Assembly (NCBI GenBank): GCA_045593345.1
Contig: JAZNWM010000089.1
Location: 1 to 32,952, forward strand
Direction: 5' to 3'
Length of the DNA: 32,952 nucleotides
Source: Eubacteriales bacterium
GTDB taxonomy: Bacteria; Bacillota; Clostridia; Oscillospirales; CAG-272
Part shown: piece by piece, positions 4,914 to 14,970 of the stretch
Numbering within the stretch: position 1 is the first letter of the stretch
Layout: each line of letters begins with the position of its first letter
Made by a program: the position numbers and the translations under genes
The notes under the pieces: model-generated
The model's database searches: none
What the model was told of the DNA's origin: nothing
Seen by the model: only the letters and a program-made list of their open reading frames with translations

Positions 4914-7274
4914 TTACTTGAACAATGCAAACAATTCGTTACGTGAGGCAACTCCAAGCTTTGCATATATGCTCGTTATCTGCTTTTTGACCGTATTCTC
5001 GCTAATGTAAAGCATAGCAGCAATTTCGTTTCGTTGCTTGCCTTCGAGCAGAAGATCAAGCACCTCTTTTTCTCTCGGAGAGAGCATACTAGTGTCGGGT
5101 AATTTCTTTTCTGCGGTAACGGCAGGCTCACCGACAACGACGACCGTCTGTTCCTTCCGTCTGAATACCACAAGAGCAAGAGCCGCAAGACCGCCTGCAA
5201 ACAACACACCGAAGGTGATGATCAGCACCGTTGCGATAGGAAAGTCCTTTTCGTAGAATGCGTAATAGGTGACATCTCCTGCGTGTGTGAATATTTCGCC
5301 GTCCTCGATTTTATCACCCAACCCATCCTCGGTGCTAAACCAACCACCAAAGCTGTAACCCGATTTCTCGATAGCCTCTGGGAATGAAATAGACGCATCG
5401 TAGGTCTGCTGTACCGTGATGGTCTGCGCGTTGCCAAAATCAAAGGTCACCGTGTAAACGTTTGGAGTGAATACTGCGTGGAAATCTATGCTTTTGGTTT
5501 CGTTTCCTACGATGAAATATCGGTCTGCCTGATAATCAAAATTCTCGGCAAGTGTCCAAGAGGTGAGCGTATAGCCTGTCTTTTCAAAGGCAGGGCGCGT
5601 TGGATGTGTGCCTGAAGGAAGAACAACGGTTTCCTTGCAAACGCCGTCCATGAAGAATTTGAAGGTCACATCGTGATTGTTCGCACCTACGGTAAACGTA
5701 CCGTAGTAGTTTCTATCTCCCAGCTTTTCCTTGATGAAACTGGTGGAAACGGTGGGGGCGTGTACGAGATGACCTTCCTCGTTGTACCATTCAGCCGGGG
5801 CTGTGCTGCCGAAATAATTGTATCCGTTTTCCTCAGCGGGCTGTTCGACTTTCGGATTGTGGGTTTCATACAACTCGTCAACCACCAAATTCCCGTAGTA
5901 GTTGAGATAATTTATATCAAAAAAGTCGGGATACCACGAAAACCAAAGCCATCTATCCTCGCCGTATCCTGTATAATCGGACATTGCCGTTTTACAGGTG
6001 TTGTTCTCTATCGTACAGAACAGTAAATGAATTGATCGAGTGCTGTAATCAAGCGAGGGATTATAATCTGTAAAAATTGCGCCCATTGCATTCTCTGCGT
6101 AATTTTTACGGATCTCTGTGTTGCTTACGTTTACGCTTATTGCACCGTTGAGATAAATCGCGCCTCCGAGACCTTGATTGCTGGCAAGTCCGAGCGTGCT
6201 TCGCTTATCCTCAGTTTCCGGAATCGCCCTGTTCTCGGTAATATAGCAGTCCTCGATATCCACGCTTGATATATCTATTCCTATACCGCCGCCAACCGAC
6301 GCCTTGTTGCCGACAATTTTACAATTGCGAACAGTAATCTCCGAGCCGTCTGTGCATCCGATAGCACCTCCGCTTAACATATCTGCCCAAAATCTTTCAC
6401 CGCCGTAAAAGTAGTTCGCATCATTCCTCTCGAAAACGCATCCCTCAAAGGAGGCAGCAACGTTCCTCATATAGATAGCACCGCCACCGACAGCATTCTG
6501 AACAAATCCCGACTTGTTATCGTTAAAGCTGCAATCCTTAACGTTCAGAGTAACGTTCTTGTTATTCGCTTCCACGTATACAGCACCGCCGCCGTACAGT
6601 GATGCGTTGGAGGAAAAGCTACATCCCTCCAAATTAAGCTCTAATCTATACGGCACATTGTCGCCATGCTCGGCTTCAAGCCAGGGAGTCAGCGTATAAT
6701 CGGCGTAAAACGCGCGAATCGCAGGACCGTACGTATGCATATAATTTTTGAATTCACAATTTTTAAAGCCTGCGATTGCATTGCCCTTGCACTCAACGGC
6801 ATACTGATTTTTTAACGGATACGGAGATAATTCCTCACCCATACTATCGTATGAAAGCTGCCAATCCTCGTCCGTAATCACATTCGTATCAAGTCCTTCG
6901 TTAAAAGTGATTCCTTCAAATGAAAACGTGGAGTATTCGCCACCAATCTTCGTTCCGTTCAGTATGAAGCTCGCCCCTGTAAATACGGCGTTGCCGTCCG
7001 TCTTGCCGCTTTTTATAGTAATGTTTTTATCAATAATAATTCTTTCAATCGTATTAACGGCACCGGTAGAGTTTAGATTGAAATCAATATCGCCAACGAG
7101 AATGATATCGCCGTTCTCCGCCTTGTTCAGAGCGTTGATAAAATCATTTCTTGTCGTAATCAGCTCGTCCTCACGGGAGATTGCCTCCGCACCGACCGCT
7201 ACATTAATCGCAAAAGCCAAGCACAAAAACAACAAACACGAGAGAACATATAAAAATTTATGCTTTATCTTCAT
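4914..7274 (-). CDS. Membrane-anchored regulator: secreted beta-helix plus Listeria-Bacteroides-type repeats, one TM helix, C-terminal LuxR/GerE HTH
   Basis: Start moved to MKIKHKF (ATG 7274; GGAGGA RBS).
- N-terminal signal/anchor.
- Repeated GGGAIY / GGAIG / NxxxxGG motifs typical of right-handed beta-helix (pectin-lyase fold) proteins.
- GYTLTSW and GYSFGGWF motifs (Flg_new-type repeats).
- TM helix PIATVLIITFGVLFAGGLAALALVVF followed by RRK.
- C-terminus LSPREKEVLDLLLEGKQRNEIAAMLYISENTVKKQITSIYAKLGV is a canonical LuxR-type HTH. Confidence 0.8.
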   Translation of the reverse strand: MKIKHKFLYVLSCLLFLCLAFAINVAVGAEAISREDELITTRNDFINALNKAENGDIILVGDIDFNLNSTGAVNTIERIIIDKNITIKSGKTDGNAVFTGASFILNGTKIGGEYSTFSFEGITFNEGLDTNVITDEDWQLSYDSMGEELSPYPLKNQYAVECKGNAIAGFKNCEFKNYMHTYGPAIRAFYADYTLTPWLEAEHGDNVPYRLELNLEGCSFSSNASLYGGGAVYVEANNKNVTLNVKDCSFNDNKSGFVQNAVGGGAIYMRNVAASFEGCVFERNDANYFYGGERFWADMLSGGAIGCTDGSEITVRNCKIVGNKASVGGGIGIDISSVDIEDCYITENRAIPETEDKRSTLGLASNQGLGGAIYLNGAISVNVSNTEIRKNYAENAMGAIFTDYNPSLDYSTRSIHLLFCTIENNTCKTAMSDYTGYGEDRWLWFSWYPDFFDINYLNYYGNLVVDELYETHNPKVEQPAEENGYNYFGSTAPAEWYNEEGHLVHAPTVSTSFIKEKLGDRNYYGTFTVGANNHDVTFKFFMDGVCKETVVLPSGTHPTRPAFEKTGYTLTSWTLAENFDYQADRYFIVGNETKSIDFHAVFTPNVYTVTFDFGNAQTITVQQTYDASISFPEAIEKSGYSFGGWFSTEDGLGDKIEDGEIFTHAGDVTYYAFYEKDFPIATVLIITFGVLFAGGLAALALVVFRRKEQTVVVVGEPAVTAEKKLPDTSMLSPREKEVLDLLLEGKQRNEIAAMLYISENTVKKQITSIYAKLGVASRNELFALFK

Positions 7275-7479
7275 TATAGTTTTCCTCCACATCTGACAAA
7301 TCCACACCGTTATTCTTGCACCAAATAATAAACTTGCCGATTGCTCTTGCCTGTGGCTTACGATTCTCACGCTCCCAACGGCTGACGGTTGAATAGGAAA
7401 CACCGACCGCATCGGCAAATTGCTGTTGGCTTAGTAACCTCTCGGCTCTTATATATCTGATTTTTTGCGATAGAGTCAT
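7258..7479 (-). CDS. XRE-family HTH transcriptional regulator (73 aa)
   Basis: LSQQQFADAVGVSYSTVSRWERENRKP is a classic HTH_3 signature. GGAGGA RBS. The 3' end overlaps the next CDS by 17 nt. Confidence 0.85.
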   Translation of the reverse strand: MTLSQKIRYIRAERLLSQQQFADAVGVSYSTVSRWERENRKPQARAIGKFIIWCKNNGVDLSDVEENYNEDKA

Positions 7480-7513
7480 GCATTTTCCTCCATAATGTTT
7501 CTTAATATGTCAT

Positions 7514-7542
7514 ATTATATCACAAAATAGCCATTTCGTCAA
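7514..7542 (-). promoter_or_regulatory. Sigma-A promoter of the XRE/LuxR pair
   Basis: Minus strand TTGACG-17 nt-TATAAT. The word TCGTCAATAA occurs twice (7536-7545, 7564-7573), so the -35 sits in a direct repeat. Confidence 0.65.
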
Positions 7543-7625
7543 TAAGCTTTGATGTATTTACGCTCGTCAATAAAAAGAAAGGCACCACTTGGATGACTAC
7601 CGTAAATTGGTTTTATATTCAAATC

Positions 7626-7655
7626 AAAAAGGACGAGAAGCTTCTCGTCCTTTTT
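7626..7655. terminator. Perfect 15+15 palindromic bidirectional terminator
   Basis: AAAAAGGACGAGAAG|CTTCTCGTCCTTTTT. Confidence 0.85.
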
Positions 7656-7719
7656 GCACTCTTCCTTGACTGCAAGGTGTAGTGCGTTATACCGTATTAT
7701 TTGTTTCGGGCGGTAAGAG

Positions 7720-7940
7720 AATGATGTTTTTGCTTGCGCAAAAATGATGTTATTCGCTTCGCTCATAATGATGTTGCTCGCCAAGGCTCGCAATGATGTG
7801 ATGTTTGCCATAAAATGTGGCGAAGCCACACATCATTAGCGAAGCGTCATCACCGGACAAAGTCCTACATCTTTGCCGAAGGCAACATCACTTGCCCGCA
7901 AGGGCAAACATCATTCGGCTGACCTGCTTTATCGCAGGTC
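7720..7940. repeat. Divergent array of ~9 short units (small GNRA/GAA-loop hairpin plus ACATCATT-like word), followed by a hairpin
   Basis: AATGATGT at 7720, 7743, 7767 and 7792. The inverse word ACATCA(T/C) occurs at 7830, ~7846, 7867, 7885 and 7908. Hairpins at 7816-7830, 7855-7865, 7873-7885, 7892-7907 and 7921-7940. Confidence 0.8.
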
Positions 7941-8047
7941 GCCGTTTCGTGATACTTTCTGTCATTGGTGACCCGGAGTATTACAAGGTCGAATACGGGA
8001 TCTTGCTGTGTGAAAATGCTACGTCCAATTACAGCCTTTGTCCATAA

Positions 8048-10312
8048 TTATGTTTCATTTAAAAGAGATTTAACGTAATTAAGTTTTTCTAAAATTACAT
8101 TTAAACAGATCAACGTTAATTTAAATCCGTTCAACAATTCACCTCCGAAAATAAAAGCATTTCCGTGAGCGCACTCGTTCCTGATATTAAGGAAATTATC
8201 ATTATACATACACTGGTATACAAAGAACAAGTCGGGAACATTTTCTAAAGAAGAGGTTTCTTTATAAATTTCGAGAATGATATCTTGCAAAACGCTACTT
8301 GGATCTTTTTGGTGTATATACTCGTCCGTTTTTTCCTTAAACGGCACAATTGATAAATAAGAACCGTATTCTCTTATTTTGTTCTCTAATATAGGGAACA
8401 ATTGAGTAACATGTGCAAGATATATCTCGTCATTTAAATCAATCAATTTGTATTCAGATAATTCTGCTTTTATTTTTTCGTACAAAGTTTTTTCATCGGA
8501 AAATAGTGATATGCTCAAAAGAACGCCCTGAATCATGTCATCATAGATTGCGTTTAGCATATTCATAGGTTTCATTTGATTCAAGAACTTGTATGATTTA
8601 GTTTCAAGAATATTTTCTATGATGCTTAAAAACGCTTGATCCGTATCGTGTCTTTCAACATTTCGTATTCTCTCATATGGAAAAGATTTGCTGATTATTA
8701 GACTTGTAAACAACGAAGAGAATACCAATTCCGAGTGGAGAGATATTTTGTCTACCAAACGATCTTCTGTTAAGGAGATAATGCTACGTACATATGTGCT
8801 TGGTTTGTTAACTGCAAGCGCATTAGCAATATCAACAGATTCTTTTTTGATTTCAAGCGGTGTTTTGATAGAATGCATTTTTCCAAGGCACTTTTCATAG
8901 TAAATGCTTTGCCATGCCCTTTGCAATCCGATAAGCAACTGTTTTACTACTCTTTTTTCAACATTTGGATTTTGCAATTGTTTGAGCAAGAAAATTAAAA
9001 ACTCGTGGAATAAAGATGCCAAGGCAACGGATTGTTCTTCGTCAATCAGTTTTTGAAATACGTCAACTACATTTTCTAAAACTTCTGTTGTTTGTCCTTG
9101 AATTACAAATTCATTTCTGCAGTATTCAAAAAAATCTGTTGATTTCTTTATTTTAGTCCAACCGCTAGCCAAACTATCATTGTAGTCTTTAAGTAATTGT
9201 GTTTGCTCTTTGGTTGTAGTGCAACCTATTCTTTTTAAATGGCTTATGATTGTAGGAGAGGATAATTTCCCAATCTCAGCAACAAAATCGCGCATATACA
9301 GCTTTTTTATTGAATCTGATACGATCTTATCTTTGAGTAAAGCGGTTATAGTTAAAAGCGATGAGCATTCTATTTTATACCATGGTGTATCATCGTTAAC
9401 TGTTTTAAGATATTCTATTATCAACTCAAAATGCTTTGATATCGTTTGCTCGGATGGAATGCGGTTATACAAATAGTATCTAACCGTTTCAATAACGAAC
9501 GAGGATATATCGCAATTAAAATAATCAATTAACGAATCCAAAACATCTTCAGTCCACAAAGATATGTCGGGAATTGTTCTATCACTAAAAATGATAGCGG
9601 GTCTTAGTTTTCCGTCATCAATTTTGGTGTTGAGCATATCAAATATATACTGTTCTTCCCATGAAACGTTATTAGGATGATTTATTCTTCGATAATTAAA
9701 CGCATCCGCGGCAACTATTTCATTCCTATGTATTTCCAATAAACTCAAATTAGCGGGAATTACAACTTCATTAAGATTGTTTTCAAAGCAACTGATCCAA
9801 GTGCATTTATCCGAGTAATTTAGTGAGTTGAGTCGTGCAATTAAATTATCTTTCTCCTCTTTAACGTCATGTAAGTTGCTTAATTGAAAATAATTGTTAA
9901 ACTGGAATATACCCACTGAAAAAATATAGTTTCTGGGATTCTTATAGTTTAGTATTTTGGTTACATGTATTACAATTAGCAACAATTTGGAAAATTCGTC
10001 TGTAAAAGAATCCCACAATTCTTCGAAAGAGACTTTTTCACAGAAAAACAGGGCTAACGAGTTAACATTTTTTAACCATGGTTTATTTATCGTAATATTT
10101 ATATCCCCTAAATTATGGATGCTGACGAGGTGAGAATAAACATCGGAAATATCGTGGTAAGAATTTAAAAACTCTCCCCAGGTTGTAGTGTTCGCAGTGA
10201 ATCCTTTGAAATCAGCTTCAGTTTGATCTATAAACCACTGCCAATCTTTACTTAAATTTAATAATCCATCGGAAAATTTAACTTTTGTTTCGTGTTCATA
10301 GTAATTTTTCAT
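8048..10312 (-). CDS. Orphan 754-aa AT-rich protein with a C-terminal HEPN-like (DUF4209/Abi_C-like) motif and a second internal IRNxxxH motif
   Basis: Long uninterrupted ORF in AT-rich DNA, with a GAGGGA RBS. LNIRNECAHG (aa 708-717, nt 8165-8185) fits the Rx4-6H HEPN signature and the 'NLRNxxAHG' pattern I recall for DUF4209. ERIRNVERHD (aa 547-556, nt 8648-8668) repeats IRNxxxH. No P-loop or other recognisable motif. Confidence 0.6.
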   Translation of the reverse strand: MKNYYEHETKVKFSDGLLNLSKDWQWFIDQTEADFKGFTANTTTWGEFLNSYHDISDVYSHLVSIHNLGDINITINKPWLKNVNSLALFFCEKVSFEELWDSFTDEFSKLLLIVIHVTKILNYKNPRNYIFSVGIFQFNNYFQLSNLHDVKEEKDNLIARLNSLNYSDKCTWISCFENNLNEVVIPANLSLLEIHRNEIVAADAFNYRRINHPNNVSWEEQYIFDMLNTKIDDGKLRPAIIFSDRTIPDISLWTEDVLDSLIDYFNCDISSFVIETVRYYLYNRIPSEQTISKHFELIIEYLKTVNDDTPWYKIECSSLLTITALLKDKIVSDSIKKLYMRDFVAEIGKLSSPTIISHLKRIGCTTTKEQTQLLKDYNDSLASGWTKIKKSTDFFEYCRNEFVIQGQTTEVLENVVDVFQKLIDEEQSVALASLFHEFLIFLLKQLQNPNVEKRVVKQLLIGLQRAWQSIYYEKCLGKMHSIKTPLEIKKESVDIANALAVNKPSTYVRSIISLTEDRLVDKISLHSELVFSSLFTSLIISKSFPYERIRNVERHDTDQAFLSIIENILETKSYKFLNQMKPMNMLNAIYDDMIQGVLLSISLFSDEKTLYEKIKAELSEYKLIDLNDEIYLAHVTQLFPILENKIREYGSYLSIVPFKEKTDEYIHQKDPSSVLQDIILEIYKETSSLENVPDLFFVYQCMYNDNFLNIRNECAHGNAFIFGGELLNGFKLTLICLNVILEKLNYVKSLLNET

Positions 10313-10704
10313 AATTCCCTCGCTAAAATAATAAGTTGTTTTTCAACATTTTTTGAAATATGGAGCTTAGTTTTAAAAACCTATAATTTTATTTGAAATA
10401 CAGCACTTTCACCGCCCTTAAGTATTATTATATCACAAAGTTTTACAATTCAAAACATATAATACCAATGCTTTGGCAAGTTGCTTCGAAAACTCAGTTC
10501 TATTCAATTGATCATAACTTTTAAGGGGTTTGTTCGATGAAAACATATTTGCCTCATTAAATTGTGATAATACAATGAATTAATTACACCTTATATAACA
10601 TTATACCGCTAAAATCGACAAAATTCTTCAAAAAAACAAAAAAATTATAAAAACTTATTTTTTATATATTTTCCCTCCCGAGGTGCTAATTGTCGCATAC
10701 TTTT

Positions 10705-10858
10705 CGTATAAGTCAATGTCGGGTCGGAAATTAGCACTGAAAAATTGAATAGCCAAGTTCCAAATTTATGGATAGAGCCAAGTAGCTGTAAAAGGTTACT
10801 TGGCTTTTTTCTTTTTACTAAAACGCACTAATTTCTGTCCCTCGTTGACTTATACATA
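10705..10858. repeat. Imperfect ~33-bp inverted repeat (10705-10737 / 10826-10858) bracketing an 88-bp segment
   Basis: Both arms share the blocks CTAATTTC and TTGACTTATAC. An extra copy of GTGCTAATT lies at 10683-10691. Confidence 0.7.
10776..10811 (+). terminator. Rho-independent terminator inside the inverted-repeat-bracketed segment
   Basis: AGCCAAGTA-N12-TACTTGGCT followed by TTTTTT. A second AGCCAAGT word lies at 10751-10758. Confidence 0.65.
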
Positions 10859-10947
10859 CCGAGTTGGATATGGCTTTCTTTATACCAAAGTATGCACAAT
10901 GCACCTTGCCGGAAGGCAAAAATAAAAATATACGGAGGTATAGAAAA

Positions 10948-11247
10948 ATGAAAAAAGTGTATTACTCGGTTAAGAGGTACAAAAGAAACGAAATGATCGA
11001 ACAGAAAGGAGTCGGTTTTATCACCGATACGGATTTAGTTATCGCTTGTATAAGTCAGAATAACAAACCGTATATCAAAGTCTTTGAAGACTGTGTCAAA
11101 GACTGTCACGCTATCCCCTACAGACCTAATGAATATCAAGGTGGATACTATGAAATCCGTGAGATTGAAGTTGATACAGGTAAGGATAATTACGATACCC
11201 GTGAAATTCAACTTGACTATAAAATCTGGTACAAGCTTGTGGATTAA
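10948..11247 (+). CDS. Hypothetical protein (99 aa)
   Basis: Start moved to MKKVYYS (ATG 10948), 8 nt after GGAGG. No recognisable motif. Confidence 0.6.
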   Translation: MKKVYYSVKRYKRNEMIEQKGVGFITDTDLVIACISQNNKPYIKVFEDCVKDCHAIPYRPNEYQGGYYEIREIEVDTGKDNYDTREIQLDYKIWYKLVD

Positions 11248-11275
11248 GAAATAAAAGTATAGGGAGATACAGAAA

Positions 11276-11761
11276 ATGAAAGAAACAATTAAAATAGATA
11301 TATCAAAAACATGCACAACAGATTTAGACACCGTGATCACACGGGAAAATGTGCTTTATTTATGCGAAAATATGGCCTTATGTGCCCTGAAACGTATGAT
11401 TGGATACAGAGGTGATTACGAGCTTCGTATGTACTACAATCTTGTTGGTGACATAAAAGGCAAAAACAATATAAATCATATATTTTCAGACAGCTATGAT
11501 TTAGTACAAACAGCCTGTCTGTTTTTACTTAACTATGTAGGTATGAAATTAGGAGATACTGTAATTGACAGGTACAATAAACAAGTTACAATAAGGCACG
11601 CTTGTTATAGTGAAATCGGTGCGGCTTTTTACAAAAGGTGGAATTATCACCAAAGAACCTATCCCATCAGTTATAAGGATGCCGAGGAAGATATAGAATT
11701 TATAGAAGAAATACAATTAACGAAAGCCAAGAAAGAGCCGATACAATCGTGGCACGAATGA
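11276..11761 (+). CDS. Hypothetical protein, weakly sigma-70 region-2-like (mobile-element regulatory module)
   Basis: RBS GGGAGA. SDSYDLVQTACLFLLNYVG resembles sigma region 2.1/2.2 (DLVQE..fl). The context (followed by a region-4-like HTH and a recombinase remnant) matches the ends of clostridial integrative elements as I recall them. Confidence 0.45.
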   Translation: MKETIKIDISKTCTTDLDTVITRENVLYLCENMALCALKRMIGYRGDYELRMYYNLVGDIKGKNNINHIFSDSYDLVQTACLFLLNYVGMKLGDTVIDRYNKQVTIRHACYSEIGAAFYKRWNYHQRTYPISYKDAEEDIEFIEEIQLTKAKKEPIQSWHE

Positions 11762-11922
11762 ACCTTAAAGAAAAGCACAAGAAAGTGTTAGATTGCTATC
11801 TTAAGGGGATGGGCGTTGTGGAAATATCTAAATCGTTAGGAATTGCCTACGCTACGGTTTGGCGACACAGAATGCTCTTGCAGAAACGGTATATCGAAGT
11901 TACGGGATACCAGGTCCAATGA
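11758..11922 (+). CDS. Small HTH protein (54 aa), sigma-70 region-4/LuxR-like; not in the supplied ORF track
   Basis: Hand translation: MNLKEKHKKVLDCYLKGMGVVEISKSLGIAYATVWRHRMLLQKRYIEVTGYQVQ*. ATGA start/stop overlap with the upstream CDS. Confidence 0.6.
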   Translation: MNLKEKHKKVLDCYLKGMGVVEISKSLGIAYATVWRHRMLLQKRYIEVTGYQVQ

Positions 11923-11972
11923 AAATAATACTTCCATACTCAATATGGCATATTTACAGATTAATACATAAT

Positions 11973-12006
11973 GGGAGAGCCCTAAAAAGCTCTCCCTGCT
12001 TTTTTG
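11973..12006 (+). terminator. Rho-independent terminator
   Basis: GGGAGAGC-N8-GCTCTCCC followed by tgcTTTTTT. Confidence 0.8.
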
Positions 12007-12077
12007 AAAAAATTCATATTTACATTGAAAAAACATCGCAAAAGTGAATAAAAAGTGAAAATTTACTGAAAATTCAC

Positions 12078-12107
12078 TTGACAATCGAACAATCGTGCGT
12101 ATATAAT
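12078..12107 (+). promoter_or_regulatory. Sigma-A promoter of the AlbA_2-type gene
   Basis: TTGACA-18 nt-TATAAT, about 30 nt upstream of the ATG. Confidence 0.65.
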
Positions 12108-12138
12108 ATATTTAGATTATTATGTGGAGGTATCAACA

Positions 12139-13440
12139 ATGAGCTTCGAAACTGAAAATATTGAATTTAAATTGCAATTCACCGAGGATTTGTACAAGGA
12201 GGTAATTGCGTTTGCCAATACCGACGGTGGTGTAATCTACATTGGAATTAACAACAATGGCGAGGCTGTCGGAATAGATAACGTTGACGAGAATTACACA
12301 CGTATCACCAACGGAATTCGTGATGCGATAATGCCCGACGTTACTATGTTTGTTAGATACACTATCCAGGAAAACAAGGTTGTTAAAATTTCTGTAGGTG
12401 AAGGATCATACAAGCCTTACTATCTGAAATCCAAAGGCCTAAAGCCCAGTGGTGTGTTTGTAAGACAGGGTACGTCTACCGCACCTGCATCGCCCGAACA
12501 AATACGCGCGATGATTAAAGAGTCGGACGGTGACAACTTTGAAGCTATGCGTTCTATGGATCAAGACTTAACCTTCGAGAATGCAAAAACTGCATTCAAA
12601 AAATACGGTATTGAATTTGCACAAAACAAGTACAGAGCACTTGGTATCACGCACCCCACCGAAGAACTGTACACCAATCTCGCCCTTATCATCTCGGACC
12701 AATGCACACACACAACAAAGGTTGCAGTATTCGGTGATGACGCAAATACCGAGTTTAGAGATAGCAAGGAGTTCGGCGGATCAATATTCAAGCAGCTTGA
12801 CGATACCTATTCGTATTTAACGTTGTGCAACAAAAAGGTTGCAACCTTCCAGGGACTTGAAAGAATAGAAAAGGCAGATTATCCGGACGCAGCTCTTCGA
12901 GAGGCATTACTTAATGCACTCGTTCACAGAGATTATAGCTTCAGTGGCAGTGTAATCATCAATGTGAATGATAATGAAATGGAATTCATCTCCATAGGCG
13001 GACTTCTTCCTGGGCTTTCTCCCGATGATATAAGAAGCGGAATTTCGCAGCCGAGAAACAAAAATCTTGCGGACATATTCCATCGTTTGCATCTTATTGA
13101 ATCCTATGGTACGGGTATAAGAAAGATATACAATCTGTATTCTAAATGCTCGGTTCAGCCTCGAATTGAAGTGACTTCAAACACATTTAAGATCATTCTT
13201 CCAAACATGAATAGTGTGGAAGTATCAAGCGTCGAATCTCCCAAAATCCTAGCAATATCGCCACAAAAGCAAACTATACTTGACTTTATTGACCAAAATG
13301 GCTATATTACTGAACCACAGATTATGGAGTTGGTAAAGGTAAAAAAGACAAGAGCGTATAACATAGCAAAAGAAATGCACGCCGATGGACTGATAAAACC
13401 AATCGGCCGAGGCAGTGCTAAAAAATATGTGAGAATGTAA
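12139..13440 (+). CDS. AlbA_2 (Schlafen-like) / HATPase_c_4 / winged-HTH protein (COG2865-type 'RecG-like' putative regulator)
   Basis: Start moved to MSFETENIEFK (GGAGG 8 nt upstream). Family-typical motifs: E..EFK......L.KEVIAFANTDGGVIYIGI..NGEAVG, then ALREALLNALVHRDY and YGTGIRKI. Confidence 0.8.
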   Translation: MSFETENIEFKLQFTEDLYKEVIAFANTDGGVIYIGINNNGEAVGIDNVDENYTRITNGIRDAIMPDVTMFVRYTIQENKVVKISVGEGSYKPYYLKSKGLKPSGVFVRQGTSTAPASPEQIRAMIKESDGDNFEAMRSMDQDLTFENAKTAFKKYGIEFAQNKYRALGITHPTEELYTNLALIISDQCTHTTKVAVFGDDANTEFRDSKEFGGSIFKQLDDTYSYLTLCNKKVATFQGLERIEKADYPDAALREALLNALVHRDYSFSGSVIINVNDNEMEFISIGGLLPGLSPDDIRSGISQPRNKNLADIFHRLHLIESYGTGIRKIYNLYSKCSVQPRIEVTSNTFKIILPNMNSVEVSSVESPKILAISPQKQTILDFIDQNGYITEPQIMELVKVKKTRAYNIAKEMHADGLIKPIGRGSAKKYVRM

Positions 13441-13450
13441 AAAAAGATAG

Positions 13451-13759
13451 TTGACAGACAAGGAAAACAATTATGGCAATCAAAAAAATGAATTATATAT
13501 GATGCTTGAAAAAGAAGAGATAGAAGCTTTTTACGTTAAGGCACTAAAATGCGAATCCAGACTGATAATTGAGCTCCTGATCAAAGAAATAGTGCTTTAT
13601 AATGACAAGATGGAAATTTATTTGAATACCCCGGTCAAGAACGGTCCCGATGAAAATCGGGGCTTTTCTTTTTATAACAAGACTATTAATTTAAGATATT
13701 ATTCCAAATATTCAAGATTGTTCGCTGGGAAAAGTGCAATTATAGATATTCGTGTGTAA
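13451..13759 (+). pseudogene. C-terminal remnant of a large serine recombinase (DUF4368-like tail)
   Basis: LIIELLIKEIVLYNDKMEIYLNTP resembles the conserved C-terminal 'l..lIdkI.Vy.d.kIeI.f' tail of large serine recombinases. No catalytic N-terminus is present, and the frame opens with TTG directly after the preceding gene. Confidence 0.4.
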
Positions 13760-13824
13760 TCAAGGATTTTGCTCCTTTGGAGCAATATACCTGCACTCGC
13801 TGCTGGAAAGCGAGCTTTCCGACA

Positions 13825-13939
13825 GCTTCGTTTGGTATTCGCATACCGCAACAGCGGTATCTTGCCTGGCGAGGAGATGGTGTATGCAGGTATTGCAACA
13901 AGTGTAATCAGCACAAATATCCCCCCGAGCGGCAATACC
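13825..13939. repeat. Direct repeat copy 2 (see 1-115)
   Basis: 113/115 identity to window positions 1-115. Confidence 0.9.
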
Positions 13940-13978
13940 TTATCTTTGGCACAGCCAAAGAGCAAGGGCGAGTCAATC

Positions 13979-14029
13979 TTGATGCTCCATCACAGAAACA
14001 AAAAAGGCACCCCCAACGGGTGCCGTTTC
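13979..14029. repeat. Duplicate of the tRNA(CAT) trailer/terminator module (copy of 14186-14235)
   Basis: ttgatgctccatcacagaaacaaaaaaggcaccc is identical in both copies. The hairpin loop differs (ccaac vs gatt). Both copies end gggtgccgtttc. Confidence 0.85.
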
Positions 14030-14204
14030 AAGGATTTTGACGCTTTGCGTCAATATTTCCACGACCTTCGCCTTGAAAGCTAGCTTTCAGATCTTCGGTC
14101 GGGAAATGCGAACCTTTTCGTGCACAAAAACAAGTGCTAAAATTTGCAAAACAAAGCAAGGTGCACGAACAAGGTTTGAGTCTGATTGATGCTCCATCAC
14201 AGAA

Positions 14205-14231
14205 ACAAAAAAGGCACCCGATTGGGTGCCG
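14205..14231 (-). terminator. Terminator of tRNA(CAT)
   Basis: Minus strand GGCACCC-AATC-GGGTGCC followed by TTTTTT, directly 3' of the tRNA. Confidence 0.8.
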
Positions 14232-14237
14232 TTTCTG

Positions 14238-14314
14238 TGGTGGAGCATCAAGGACTCGAACCTTGGACCGACCGGTTATGAGCCGGTAGCTCTAACCAAC
14301 TGAGCTAATGCTCC
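14238..14314 (-). tRNA. tRNA with anticodon CAT (elongator Met or lysidine-type Ile2), encoded CCA
   Basis: Reverse complement: GGAGCATTAGCTCAGTTGGTTAGAGCTACCGGCTCATAACCGGTCGGTCCAAGGTTCGAGTCCTTGATGCTCCACCA. It folds as a cloverleaf with anticodon loop CTCATAA. The body resembles Bacillus tRNA-Ile(CAU) as I recall it, but identity cannot be decided by eye. Confidence 0.9.
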
Positions 14315-14330
14315 AAATATTAGCCTGTAT

Positions 14331-14359
14331 ATTTTATCAAATTAAAAAAGGTTTGTCAA
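14331..14359 (-). promoter_or_regulatory. Promoter of tRNA(CAT)
   Basis: Minus strand TTGACA-17 nt-TAAAAT, about 16 nt upstream of the tRNA 5' end. Confidence 0.65.
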
Positions 14360-14469
14360 TAGGTTTTAGGAAAAAAGAAATTAATTGATTGCCTATATTC
14401 GACATTTGCCCTCTTTTATGAAAAAAAGCGTGGAAAAATAAAAAATATTCTTATTTTTCAAAAAATGTA

Positions 14470-14498
14470 TTGACAAACGCAAAATTATTTGCTATAAT
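14470..14498 (+). promoter_or_regulatory. Promoter of tRNA-Thr
   Basis: TTGACA-17 nt-TATAAT, about 33 nt upstream of the tRNA. Confidence 0.7.
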
Positions 14499-14531
14499 TA
14501 TCAAGCGTCACGAGGAAATATCCTTGTGTTT

Positions 14532-14607
14532 GCTGCTATGGCTCAGTTGGTAGAGCACATCCTTGGTAAGGATGAGGTCCCCAGTTCGAATCTGGGTAGC
14601 AGCTCCA
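14532..14607 (+). tRNA. tRNA-Thr (anticodon GGT), encoded CCA
   Basis: GCTGCTATGGCTCAGTTGGTAGAGCACATCCTTGGTAAGGATGAGGTCCCCAGTTCGAATCTGGGTAGCAGCTCCA. Acceptor stem GCTGCTA/TAGCAGC; anticodon loop TTGGTAA. Confidence 0.92.
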
Positions 14608-14612
14608 GACAA

Positions 14613-14646
14613 CCCCGAAGAGAAATCTTCGGGGCTTTGGCTTTTT
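14613..14646 (+). terminator. Terminator after tRNA-Thr
   Basis: CCCCGAAG-N6-CTTCGGGG, then ctttggcttttt. Confidence 0.75.
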
Positions 14647-14970
14647 ATAGGAGTTTTGAGGCATTTTTTAAGGGAGTGCCTTTTTGTTTTCCGGGGTTGT
14701 CGGGAGTTGCTACTCACGCTTTGAATTGTGTTCTGCTCCTTAGGAGTAGAACCAGTTCGCATACCCCGCTTGGAGATCGGCAAGCTTGTTTGTCGGACAA
14801 AACCCAAGGATTCTGACGATTAAAGACAACTAATATTTACAAAGAGGTCAATCGAACGGTTGACCTTTTTATTGTTTTACAAGAATAAATATACTTCTTG
14901 CAATATCAAAAAATATATGATATACTATTTACAACACAGTTAAATAATCACACACCGAAAGGGGAAAATT

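Follow-up and report, generated by a model that had tools for sequence, protein, structure and literature searches.

Introduction

Small interspersed repeats such as REP/BIME, BOX/RUP/SPRITE and Correia elements are well known. Those of the Firmicute S. pneumoniae, BOX (boxA-boxB(n)-boxC), RUP and SPRITE, are composite and non-coding and have fixed ends; BOX contains a variable number of tandem stem-loop modules and lies mostly downstream of genes, the SPRITE repeat resembles a terminator, and RUP has been linked to an IS630-type element (PMC3049150). Repetitive extragenic palindromes (REP) and the bacterial interspersed mosaic elements (BIME, or REPIN) associated with RAYT transposases are likewise extragenic, palindromic, clustered and multi-copy, and carry a short conserved motif at the 5′ foot of the hairpin. 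Gut-1 (RF01706; PMC2864571), found in Clostridia of the human and animal gut, consists of tandem short hairpins joined by a conserved 7-nt linker, GUGAAAU or GUGAUAU, and has been described as a three-hairpin RNA without context.

The subject of this study is a non-coding block at ∼7591–7944 of a 32,952-nt stretch of DNA (contig JAZNWM010000089.1 of an Eubacteriales bacterium; the whole stretch is called the window here), which adjoins the gene for a 754-aa protein. With a probability of roughly 75%, the block is a copy of a non-autonomous interspersed repeat of uncultured gut Clostridia which resembles a miniature inverted-repeat transposable element (MITE) and is a variant of the Gut-1 kind. 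An earlier note, made from the letters of the DNA alone, had seen here a mirrored array of hairpins and linkers and had offered three options: a non-coding RNA partner of the 754-aa protein (taken to be HEPN-like), an iteron or centromere-like array, or a genome-wide REP-like element.

The only signal from Rfam in the window was for Gut-1, to which positions 7842–7916 (minus strand) matched with 44.4 bits (E 4.5e-7) at a cut-off of 50. The layout of the window array, at least three adjacent hairpins with an RUGAnnU linker, is that of Gut-1, with UGAUGU in place of UGAAAU or UGAUAU, that is, (A/G)UGAUGU as the full linker. Related arrays with GTGAAAT linkers reach the cut-off (56.3 bits at locus L009 and 51.3 at L126; others score 34–48), and both linker types occur in one array or next to each other (L065, L126). 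Gut-1 and the window array also share the C-UUC-G loop type, the gut Clostridia habitat and the mirrored arrangement: the published alignment of Gut-1 contains, downstream of the modelled part, a second half of hairpins followed by AUAUCAC, as in the example BAAZ01000095.1, where GUGAUAU plus hairpin is repeated several times before hairpin plus AUAUCAC is repeated several times. What sets the present case apart is that the array lies inside a bounded, mobile-looking element of ∼355 nt. The likeness to BOX is one of architecture, and no sequence relationship is expected; its boxB module is 45 nt long and conserved in sequence, whereas the modules here measure 21–25 nt, are variable perfect palindromes and form mirror halves.

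Copies of the element and their ends

A metagenome scan with the hairpin at 7921–7940 yielded seven loci in which this hairpin is followed by a closely related array. Six of these and the window were aligned end to end (alignment A2). Homology starts exactly at (A)CGGCGACC and stops after GGTAGGTCCCCG, and the flanks on either side are unrelated. The aligned copies are ∼331–336 nt long, that of the window 354 nt owing to one additional 19-nt unit. Common to the copies is, beyond the array, a block comprising the post-array spacer, the hairpin at 7656–7685, the perfect terminator at 7626–7655 and the right end. The latter repeats the left end imperfectly and in inverted orientation: 14–20 of 21 positions are identical in the six copies, and the sequence is degenerate in the window; the terminal sequences of the element are CGGCGACCTGCGATAAAGCAG and CTGCTTTACGGTAGGTCCCCG. 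Immediately outside, six of the seven copies have the same dinucleotide at both ends: L222, L223 and L229 have TA/TA, and the window, L224 and L228 have AA/AA; L230 differs (AA/TA).

When the flanks were rejoined across the element, a terminator-like hairpin followed by a T run was formed in six of the seven copies (ΔG between −9.9 and −27.4 kcal/mol), and the join point falls into the loop of this hairpin in L229 (−27.4 kcal/mol), L223 (−20.6 kcal/mol) and the window (−14.8 kcal/mol), more clearly in L223, L229 and L222 than in the window. Thus, the copies sit in the loops of terminators and bring a terminator of their own. The genes around them are unrelated to one another (PHP, DUF4349, AraC, GyrB/ParE, Mur ligase, methionine gamma-lyase and a dockerin protein). 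Conversely, three loci orthologous to the XRE-LuxR gene pair next to the window copy, with identities of 99% (L233), 83% (L231) and 77% (L232), do not contain the element. Terminal inverted repeats, small size, lack of coding capacity and several copies at unrelated sites with presence/absence differences are all characteristics of MITEs. Since copies of the unit, and indeed of the ∼355-nt block as a whole, are scattered over many unrelated intergenic sites, the third option of the earlier note, a dispersed element, is the one that the data support.

Layout of the window copy

The orientation of the family is that of the minus strand of the window, along which the order of parts is as follows: a 21-nt terminal inverted repeat (TIR), which is at the same time half of a long hairpin; three to five units of (A/G)UGAUGU plus a perfect mini-palindrome (array half A); the centre GGCAAACATCRCATCATT; a GCGAG..CGAGCA segment; three units of mini-palindrome plus ACAUCAUU (array half B); a conserved spacer; a hairpin; a bidirectional intrinsic terminator; and the second TIR. 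No credible open reading frame (ORF) is present in the element, in agreement with what had been noted before.

In the window, the left TIR lies within the long hairpin CGGCGACCTGC-GATAAA-GCAGGTCAGCCG (7916–7944, minus strand), and homology to the other copies begins exactly here. The hairpin at 7921–7940 that had been proposed to end a separate convergent RNA does exist; it is part of this TIR. Half A (7817–7915) comprises five units whose hairpins, as read directly, are TTGCCC-GCAA-GGGCAA (7892–7907), TTGCC-GAA-GGCAA (7873–7885), GGAC-AAA-GTCC (7855–7865), AGC-GAA-GCG (7838–7846; weak) and GTGGC-GAA-GCCAC (7817–7829). The unit around 7847–7865 is the extra 19-nt hairpin plus linker, which is missing from the other six aligned copies, so the number of units varies within the sub-family. 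The centre, ATTTTATGGCAAACATCACATCATT on the minus strand (7792–7816), is the best-conserved stretch of the family. Half B (7720–7791) contains, in minus-strand order, the GCGAG..CGAGCA segment (7775–7791), ACATCATT (7767–7774), a GCGAAGC hairpin (7751–7766), ACATCATT (7743–7750), the hairpin TTTTGC-GCAA-GCAAAA (7728–7743; directly read on the plus strand as TTTTGC-TTGC-GCAAAA) and ACATCATT (7720–7727). One of the nine units counted before, 7775–7791 (TGCTCGCCAAGGCTCGC), does not form a stem-loop; it is a conserved non-hairpin segment.

On the far side of the array, the alignment of copies shows a conserved spacer, TTCTCTTACCGCCCGAAA..GGTATAAC (7686–7719), in which GTATAAC (7686–7692) is weakly −10-like and faces the hairpin and the terminator; from its letters it might conceivably be read as a promoter. 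The conserved internal hairpin, GCACTACACCTTGCAGTCAAGGAAGAGTGC on the minus strand (7656–7685), includes the TTGACT of the plus-strand promoter-like TTGACT-16-TATACC (7666–7693) of the earlier note, which failed a promoter scan and lies inside the element. The adjoining bidirectional terminator (AAAAAGGACGAG..CTCGTCCTTTTT; 7626–7655), recovered by repeat search as a perfect palindrome of 16 + 16 nt at 7625–7656, is kept in all full copies of the element. Transcription of the array from the 754-aa gene through to this terminator is plausible, the terminator itself being part of the inserted element. The right TIR is degenerate in the window (CCAATTTACGGTAGTCATCC at 7591–7610; family consensus CTGCTTTACGGTAGGTCCCCG). 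The apparent 2-bp target-site duplication reads TT on the plus strand (AA on the minus strand) at 7589–7590 and 7945–7946, and the host flank at 7947–7975, joined to 7560–7588, forms the terminator-like hairpin and T run given above, the presumed target.

Linkers, hairpins and covariation

The word AATGATGT occurs seven times in the window against 1.56 expected, and at least seven copies were seen in none of 100 shuffles. Six of the seven fall within 7720–7915, four on the plus strand (7720, 7743, 7767 and 7792) and two on the minus strand (7830 and 7908). The shorter core TGATGT adds sites at 7799 (plus) and 7885 (minus), and the degenerate linkers TCATCA (7847) and ACATCT (7867), identified by direct reading, occupy the remaining positions of the array. 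By repeat search, the mirror arms 7719–7751 and 7884–7916 (33 nt) are 79% complementary. Words and hairpins of the mirrored array are thus present where the earlier note had placed them. Compared with shuffled sequence, the array region folds markedly better on either strand (z = −7.2 on the minus and −5.9 on the plus strand).

To describe the hairpins of the family, 174 units from 37 loci were catalogued. Stems are 4–8 bp long, start immediately 3′ of TGAWRY in 143 units and, in 117, end 1–2 nt before the next core; in 83% of units, the loop is closed by a C-G pair. Perfect Watson-Crick pairing holds for each of the 151 distinct stems, with neither an internal mismatch nor a G-T/G-U pair. On the TGATGT strand, most loops are TTC (40), TGC (16), TTGC (11) and TAC (8), which read GAA, GCA, GCAA and GTA on the opposite strand. 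C-GNA-G or GCGNAGC loops of this sort belong to the hyperstable DNA mini-hairpin type (PMC13037366).

In an alignment of 23 elements, 96% of the cells pair and 14 of 43 pairs have changed on both sides, a covariation score that none of 500 shuffles reached. These compensatory changes are located in the local hairpins and occur between copies and between sub-lineages. RNAalifold additionally paired the linkers of half A with those of half B. Two of the resulting helices each show a single lineage-level swap between G-C and A-U; these long-range helices are otherwise almost invariant and hence carry little evidence either way. RNA and single-stranded DNA (ssDNA) are indistinguishable by covariation.

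The wider array family

One genome per species was scanned for triplets of ATGATGT at spacings of 11–21 nt, and among the matches listed are 14 loci in metagenome-assembled genomes (MAGs) of Clostridia (Oscillospiraceae, Ruminococcus, "Eubacteriales" and others) which have the centre of the window array, GCAAACATCRCATCAT. They align to the window by position over ∼215 nt (nhmmer E 1e-49 to 1e-69; the window itself 4.7e-54), and the G+C content of the hosts spans 35–63%. The usual setting is behind a tRNA gene (Ser, Leu, Tyr and others) and a terminator of conserved sequence, with the array abutting a strong promoter, TTGAAA-N17-TGnTATAAT, of varied downstream genes. Looser relatives comprise arrays of a single orientation (e.g., L033, between era-like and recO-like genes), permuted B-A arrays and arrays of mixed linkers (AATGATGT, AATGAAGT, GTGAAGT, GTGAAAT and ATGAAGC). 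Several arrays share one 8-kb locus, and one MAG has arrays on two contigs.

The 61 ORFs flanking arrays belong to 65 Pfam families, each represented in at most two ORFs; the 25 families listed for them are all housekeeping and include neither transposase nor integrase. Half-arrays showed no preferred orientation relative to neighbouring ORFs. Plasmid and phage collections gave no blastn match. The conserved core centre was found on three predicted viral contigs only, in each case beside a tRNA-type junction, and one of these has three copies within 1.3 kb beside a Gut-1-type array (L126); a scan of viral sequence for three AATGATGT words mostly returned contigs labelled giant-virus MAGs, which are presumed to be unrelated.

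Three further observations concern the surroundings of these arrays. A terminator hairpin of conserved sequence, AAAAAACGCACTTTTGTCTACCAGACAAAGGTGCGTTTTTT, directly follows the CCA of different tRNA genes in different species (L112 at 2823–2865; also L027, L073, L076, L122, L128 and L126), and in L126 it is also present at the other end of an array; it has the appearance of an independent terminator repeat of the SPRITE type. At six loci (L024, L026, L037, L076, L108 and L112), more often than expected, a small gene starting MKENKLAELSM… directly follows the array promoter; its product is a four-helix-bundle/23S rRNA intervening-sequence protein (PF05635 confirmed for one). Finally, in L122 (∼290–720) and L013 (∼260–560), the 3′ end of the neighbouring tRNA-Ser gene recurs as a second copy flanking the array, direct in L122 and inverted in L013, a picture that remnants of site-specific integration at tRNA genes would give.

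The 754-aa gene and its surroundings

The 754-aa protein is rare, with six homologues among 5.8 billion clusters, three of which (97, 91 and 79% identity) were examined at five loci (L001–L005). Behind the 97% copies (L001–L003), ∼85 nt after the stop codon are common with the window, followed by unrelated sequence; in L004 (91%) and L005 (79%), the gene runs directly into integrase or helix-turn-helix genes. An array was present at none of the five, and Rfam found nothing at these loci. Reciprocally, the 754-aa gene is absent from all array-bearing loci examined, and the XRE-LuxR loci L231–L233 have neither array nor 754-aa gene upstream. On the MITE-like reading, the element is ordinary, junk-like DNA that came to lie beside this gene through a chance insertion into the downstream terminator region, and not a functional partner.

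The sole basis for calling the protein HEPN-like is an RNExxHG motif near the C-terminus that is invariant in seven sequences. No match was obtained in Pfam (also with relaxed settings), PADLOC, NCBIfam or a PDB profile search, nor a fold match with Foldseek, and the AlphaFold model is of low confidence (pLDDT 66). An exact-sequence look-up of the 754-aa and 834-aa ORFs of the window gave no match, probably due to start-codon choice. The gene (8048–10312, minus strand) encodes an all-alpha protein, and its homologues adjoin integrases, a relaxase and PcfJ/PcfK/ArdA genes; it resembles the cargo carried by mobile elements.

Between this gene and tRNA-Met/tRNA-Thr (10400–14700), positions 12124–13440 encode a Schlafen AlbA_2 plus HATPase_c_4 protein with weak PADLOC similarity to Argonaute-associated proteins. 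The syntenic locus L232 lacks the stretch 10400–14700 and has a TRAM/tRNA-U5 methyltransferase gene in its place, which suggests a variable, defence-island-like region. On the other side of the element (7258–7542, minus strand), a strong promoter, TTGACG-17-TATAAT with TG (7542–7514), drives a 73-aa XRE regulator, the ORF of which overlaps the start of a gene for a LuxR-type/Listeria-Bacteroides-repeat protein; this pair is syntenic in L231–L233. The PFK encoded in the window is 92% identical to MAG proteins labelled as those of an uncultured Clostridia bacterium. In L001, 3′ of the 97% homologue (8380–8900), two related segments of ∼150 nt were seen (…GGGTTCGAAACA plus a long stem plus ATTCCCGTAC plus a terminator), for which neither an Rfam match nor a tRNA call was obtained.

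The idea that CTCCGGGTCACCA (7957–7970) is the 3′ end of a tRNA, displaced there and delimiting an island, was rejected: the sequence does not match tRNA-Met (14238–14314), and ARAGORN detected no tRNA in L001–L005. The divergence point after the 754-aa gene is better explained by differing terminators plus the inserted element.

Proposed mobility of the element and alternative explanations

If the block is a MITE-like repeat, it would be moved in trans by a transposase that recognizes the terminal repeats, and the TA/AA duplication together with the ends would fit a DDE enzyme of the IS630/Tc1-mariner-like type. The single-stranded or bendable loops of intrinsic terminators may serve as landing sites, and insertion there would be tolerated because the element supplies its own two-way terminator. 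The mirrored 6–8-nt linkers might be subterminal protein-binding repeats. The palindromes could owe their perfection to selection for fold-back; alternatively, quasi-palindromes could be corrected by template switching, a process that can likewise maintain perfect palindromes.

Several observations weigh against this reading. In the flanks of array loci, the search met neither an autonomous element nor a transposase that has these terminal repeats. The 2-bp duplication is only suggestive, since its second base is always A and six matches in seven would arise by chance with a probability of ∼0.06. The right end in the window is degenerate, and L233 has the sequence in common with it from TAGTCATCC outward; the true right end may therefore be near 7600 rather than 7591, and the exact boundary and the local history are uncertain, the insertion being less clean than in L223, L229 and L222. 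A-only, B-only and permuted arrays exist without these TIRs, so the array module may predate this MITE and be independent of it. Moreover, compensatory changes in the hairpins and strong conservation across genera hint at a selected structure and not at inert DNA.

We regard as unlikely an alternative in which the mirrored array, in the wider Gut-1 kind, is itself under selection as a single-strand structure instead of being the passive interior of a transposon. Linker A(i) would pair with linker B(n-i), and as every spacer is a perfect mini-hairpin of the C-GNA-G type, a single strand of either ssDNA or RNA would fold as a stack of four-way junctions. Selection would be manifest in the conservation across Clostridia of such different G+C content. 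The structure might serve recognition or synapsis in an undescribed hairpin-dependent mobility system, or act as a two-way boundary between transcription units; if so, the Gut-1 "RNA" of Rfam would have to be re-read as half of such an element.

Rather unlikely, too, is a stand-alone RNA of the Gut-1 class which acts in trans, either as a sponge presenting single-stranded UGAUGU or as a ladder of four-way junctions, and for which spread would be secondary. It draws on the Rfam match and the related loci above the cut-off, on the covarying hairpins, on the linker pairing predicted by RNAalifold, in which U-G wobbles appear on the minus-strand reading only, and on the rating of Gut-1 as certainly RNA by Weinberg 2010 (PMC2864571). 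An array promoter is not evident, though; the usual place is after a terminator and before the next promoter, and orientation relative to neighbouring genes is random. The complete absence of internal G-U pairs from the 151 stems and the mostly 3-nt, C-G-closed loops (UNC on the UGAUGU strand, GNA on the other) correspond to DNA mini-hairpins and not to typical RNA tetraloops. The near-invariant long-range helices contribute little, and the ends of the copies are transposon-like.

Distinctly improbable is a REP/BIME-like ssDNA element, the units of which would be recognized by a Y1 HUH enzyme (RAYT-like) or another ssDNA-binding protein, with the arrays growing thereby. The extragenic, multi-copy and clustered distribution and the GNA/GNRA loops of DNA mini-hairpins would suit such an element, and the geometry, with the stem directly behind TGAWRY in most units, fits that of REP, defined by a short conserved guide 0–2 nt 5′ of the hairpin (PMC6006769). 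Yet, the motif is TGATGT-like instead of GT[AG]G, and the stems vary among units whereas REP copies have a common stem sequence. Neither a RAYT gene nor any other Y1 transposase is among the 25 families listed for the 61 flanking ORFs or among the matches of 10 ORFs scanned singly. The window family also has TIRs and a possible target duplication, which HUH elements lack. In the same survey, the classes with genes flanked by REP-type sequences are assigned mainly to Proteobacteria, Cyanobacteria and Bacteroidetes, and Clostridia are named only for the IS200-type subclass (PMC6006769).

Barely credible, finally, are the first two options of the earlier note, a repeat-RNA antitoxin or regulator of the 754-aa protein in the manner of type III toxin-antitoxin systems (ToxI and relatives, likewise tandem short repeats near a putative RNase-like gene) or a plasmid/phage iteron or centromere array: despite the adjacent gene with its invariant RNExxHG, the defence-island-like region and the regular unit spacing of 21–25 bp, the homologues examined lack the array and dozens of array loci lack the gene; ToxI-type repeats are direct, ∼34–36 nt long, located upstream of the toxin and conserved with it, whereas the array is mirrored, downstream and unlinked to the gene in L001–L005; and the context is chromosomal, with no rep/par genes nearby, no plasmid or phage match, a core confined among viral contigs to three at tRNA-type junctions, and only the 6–8-nt linker of each unit conserved between spacers that are variable perfect palindromes.

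Other candidates were rejected as well. CRISPR, TIGR-type guide arrays, box C/D-like K-turns, DnaA/Spo0A boxes and integrase arm sites do not apply, given that conservation is limited to 6–8 nt and that what varies is perfectly palindromic. A link to the replication strand was dismissed because the GC skew of the flanks varies in sign relative to element orientation, and the notion that the UGAUGU strand is that of the incoming transcript failed over 53 half-arrays and on the permuted B-A arrays.

Significance

Rfam already lists the hairpin plus linker motif under the name Gut-1, and on present evidence, the element falls within known kinds of biology. The mirrored architecture, the UGAUGU variant and a bounded element with a preference for terminator loops appear to be without description in the literature searched. 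For the window, a false lead, that is, a defence gene with an RNA partner, is removed, and the "perfect terminator" and the "promoter" are relabelled as parts of an inserted repeat. Annotation of gut MAGs can take such arrays, wrongly, for CRISPR-like or regulatory features. Gut-1, since 2010 a candidate RNA known from the gut only, appears to represent one half of a family of mirrored repeats dispersed in Clostridia, at least one sub-family of which has transposon-like ends and a preference for terminator loops, and this bears on how small repeats reshape terminators and promoters.

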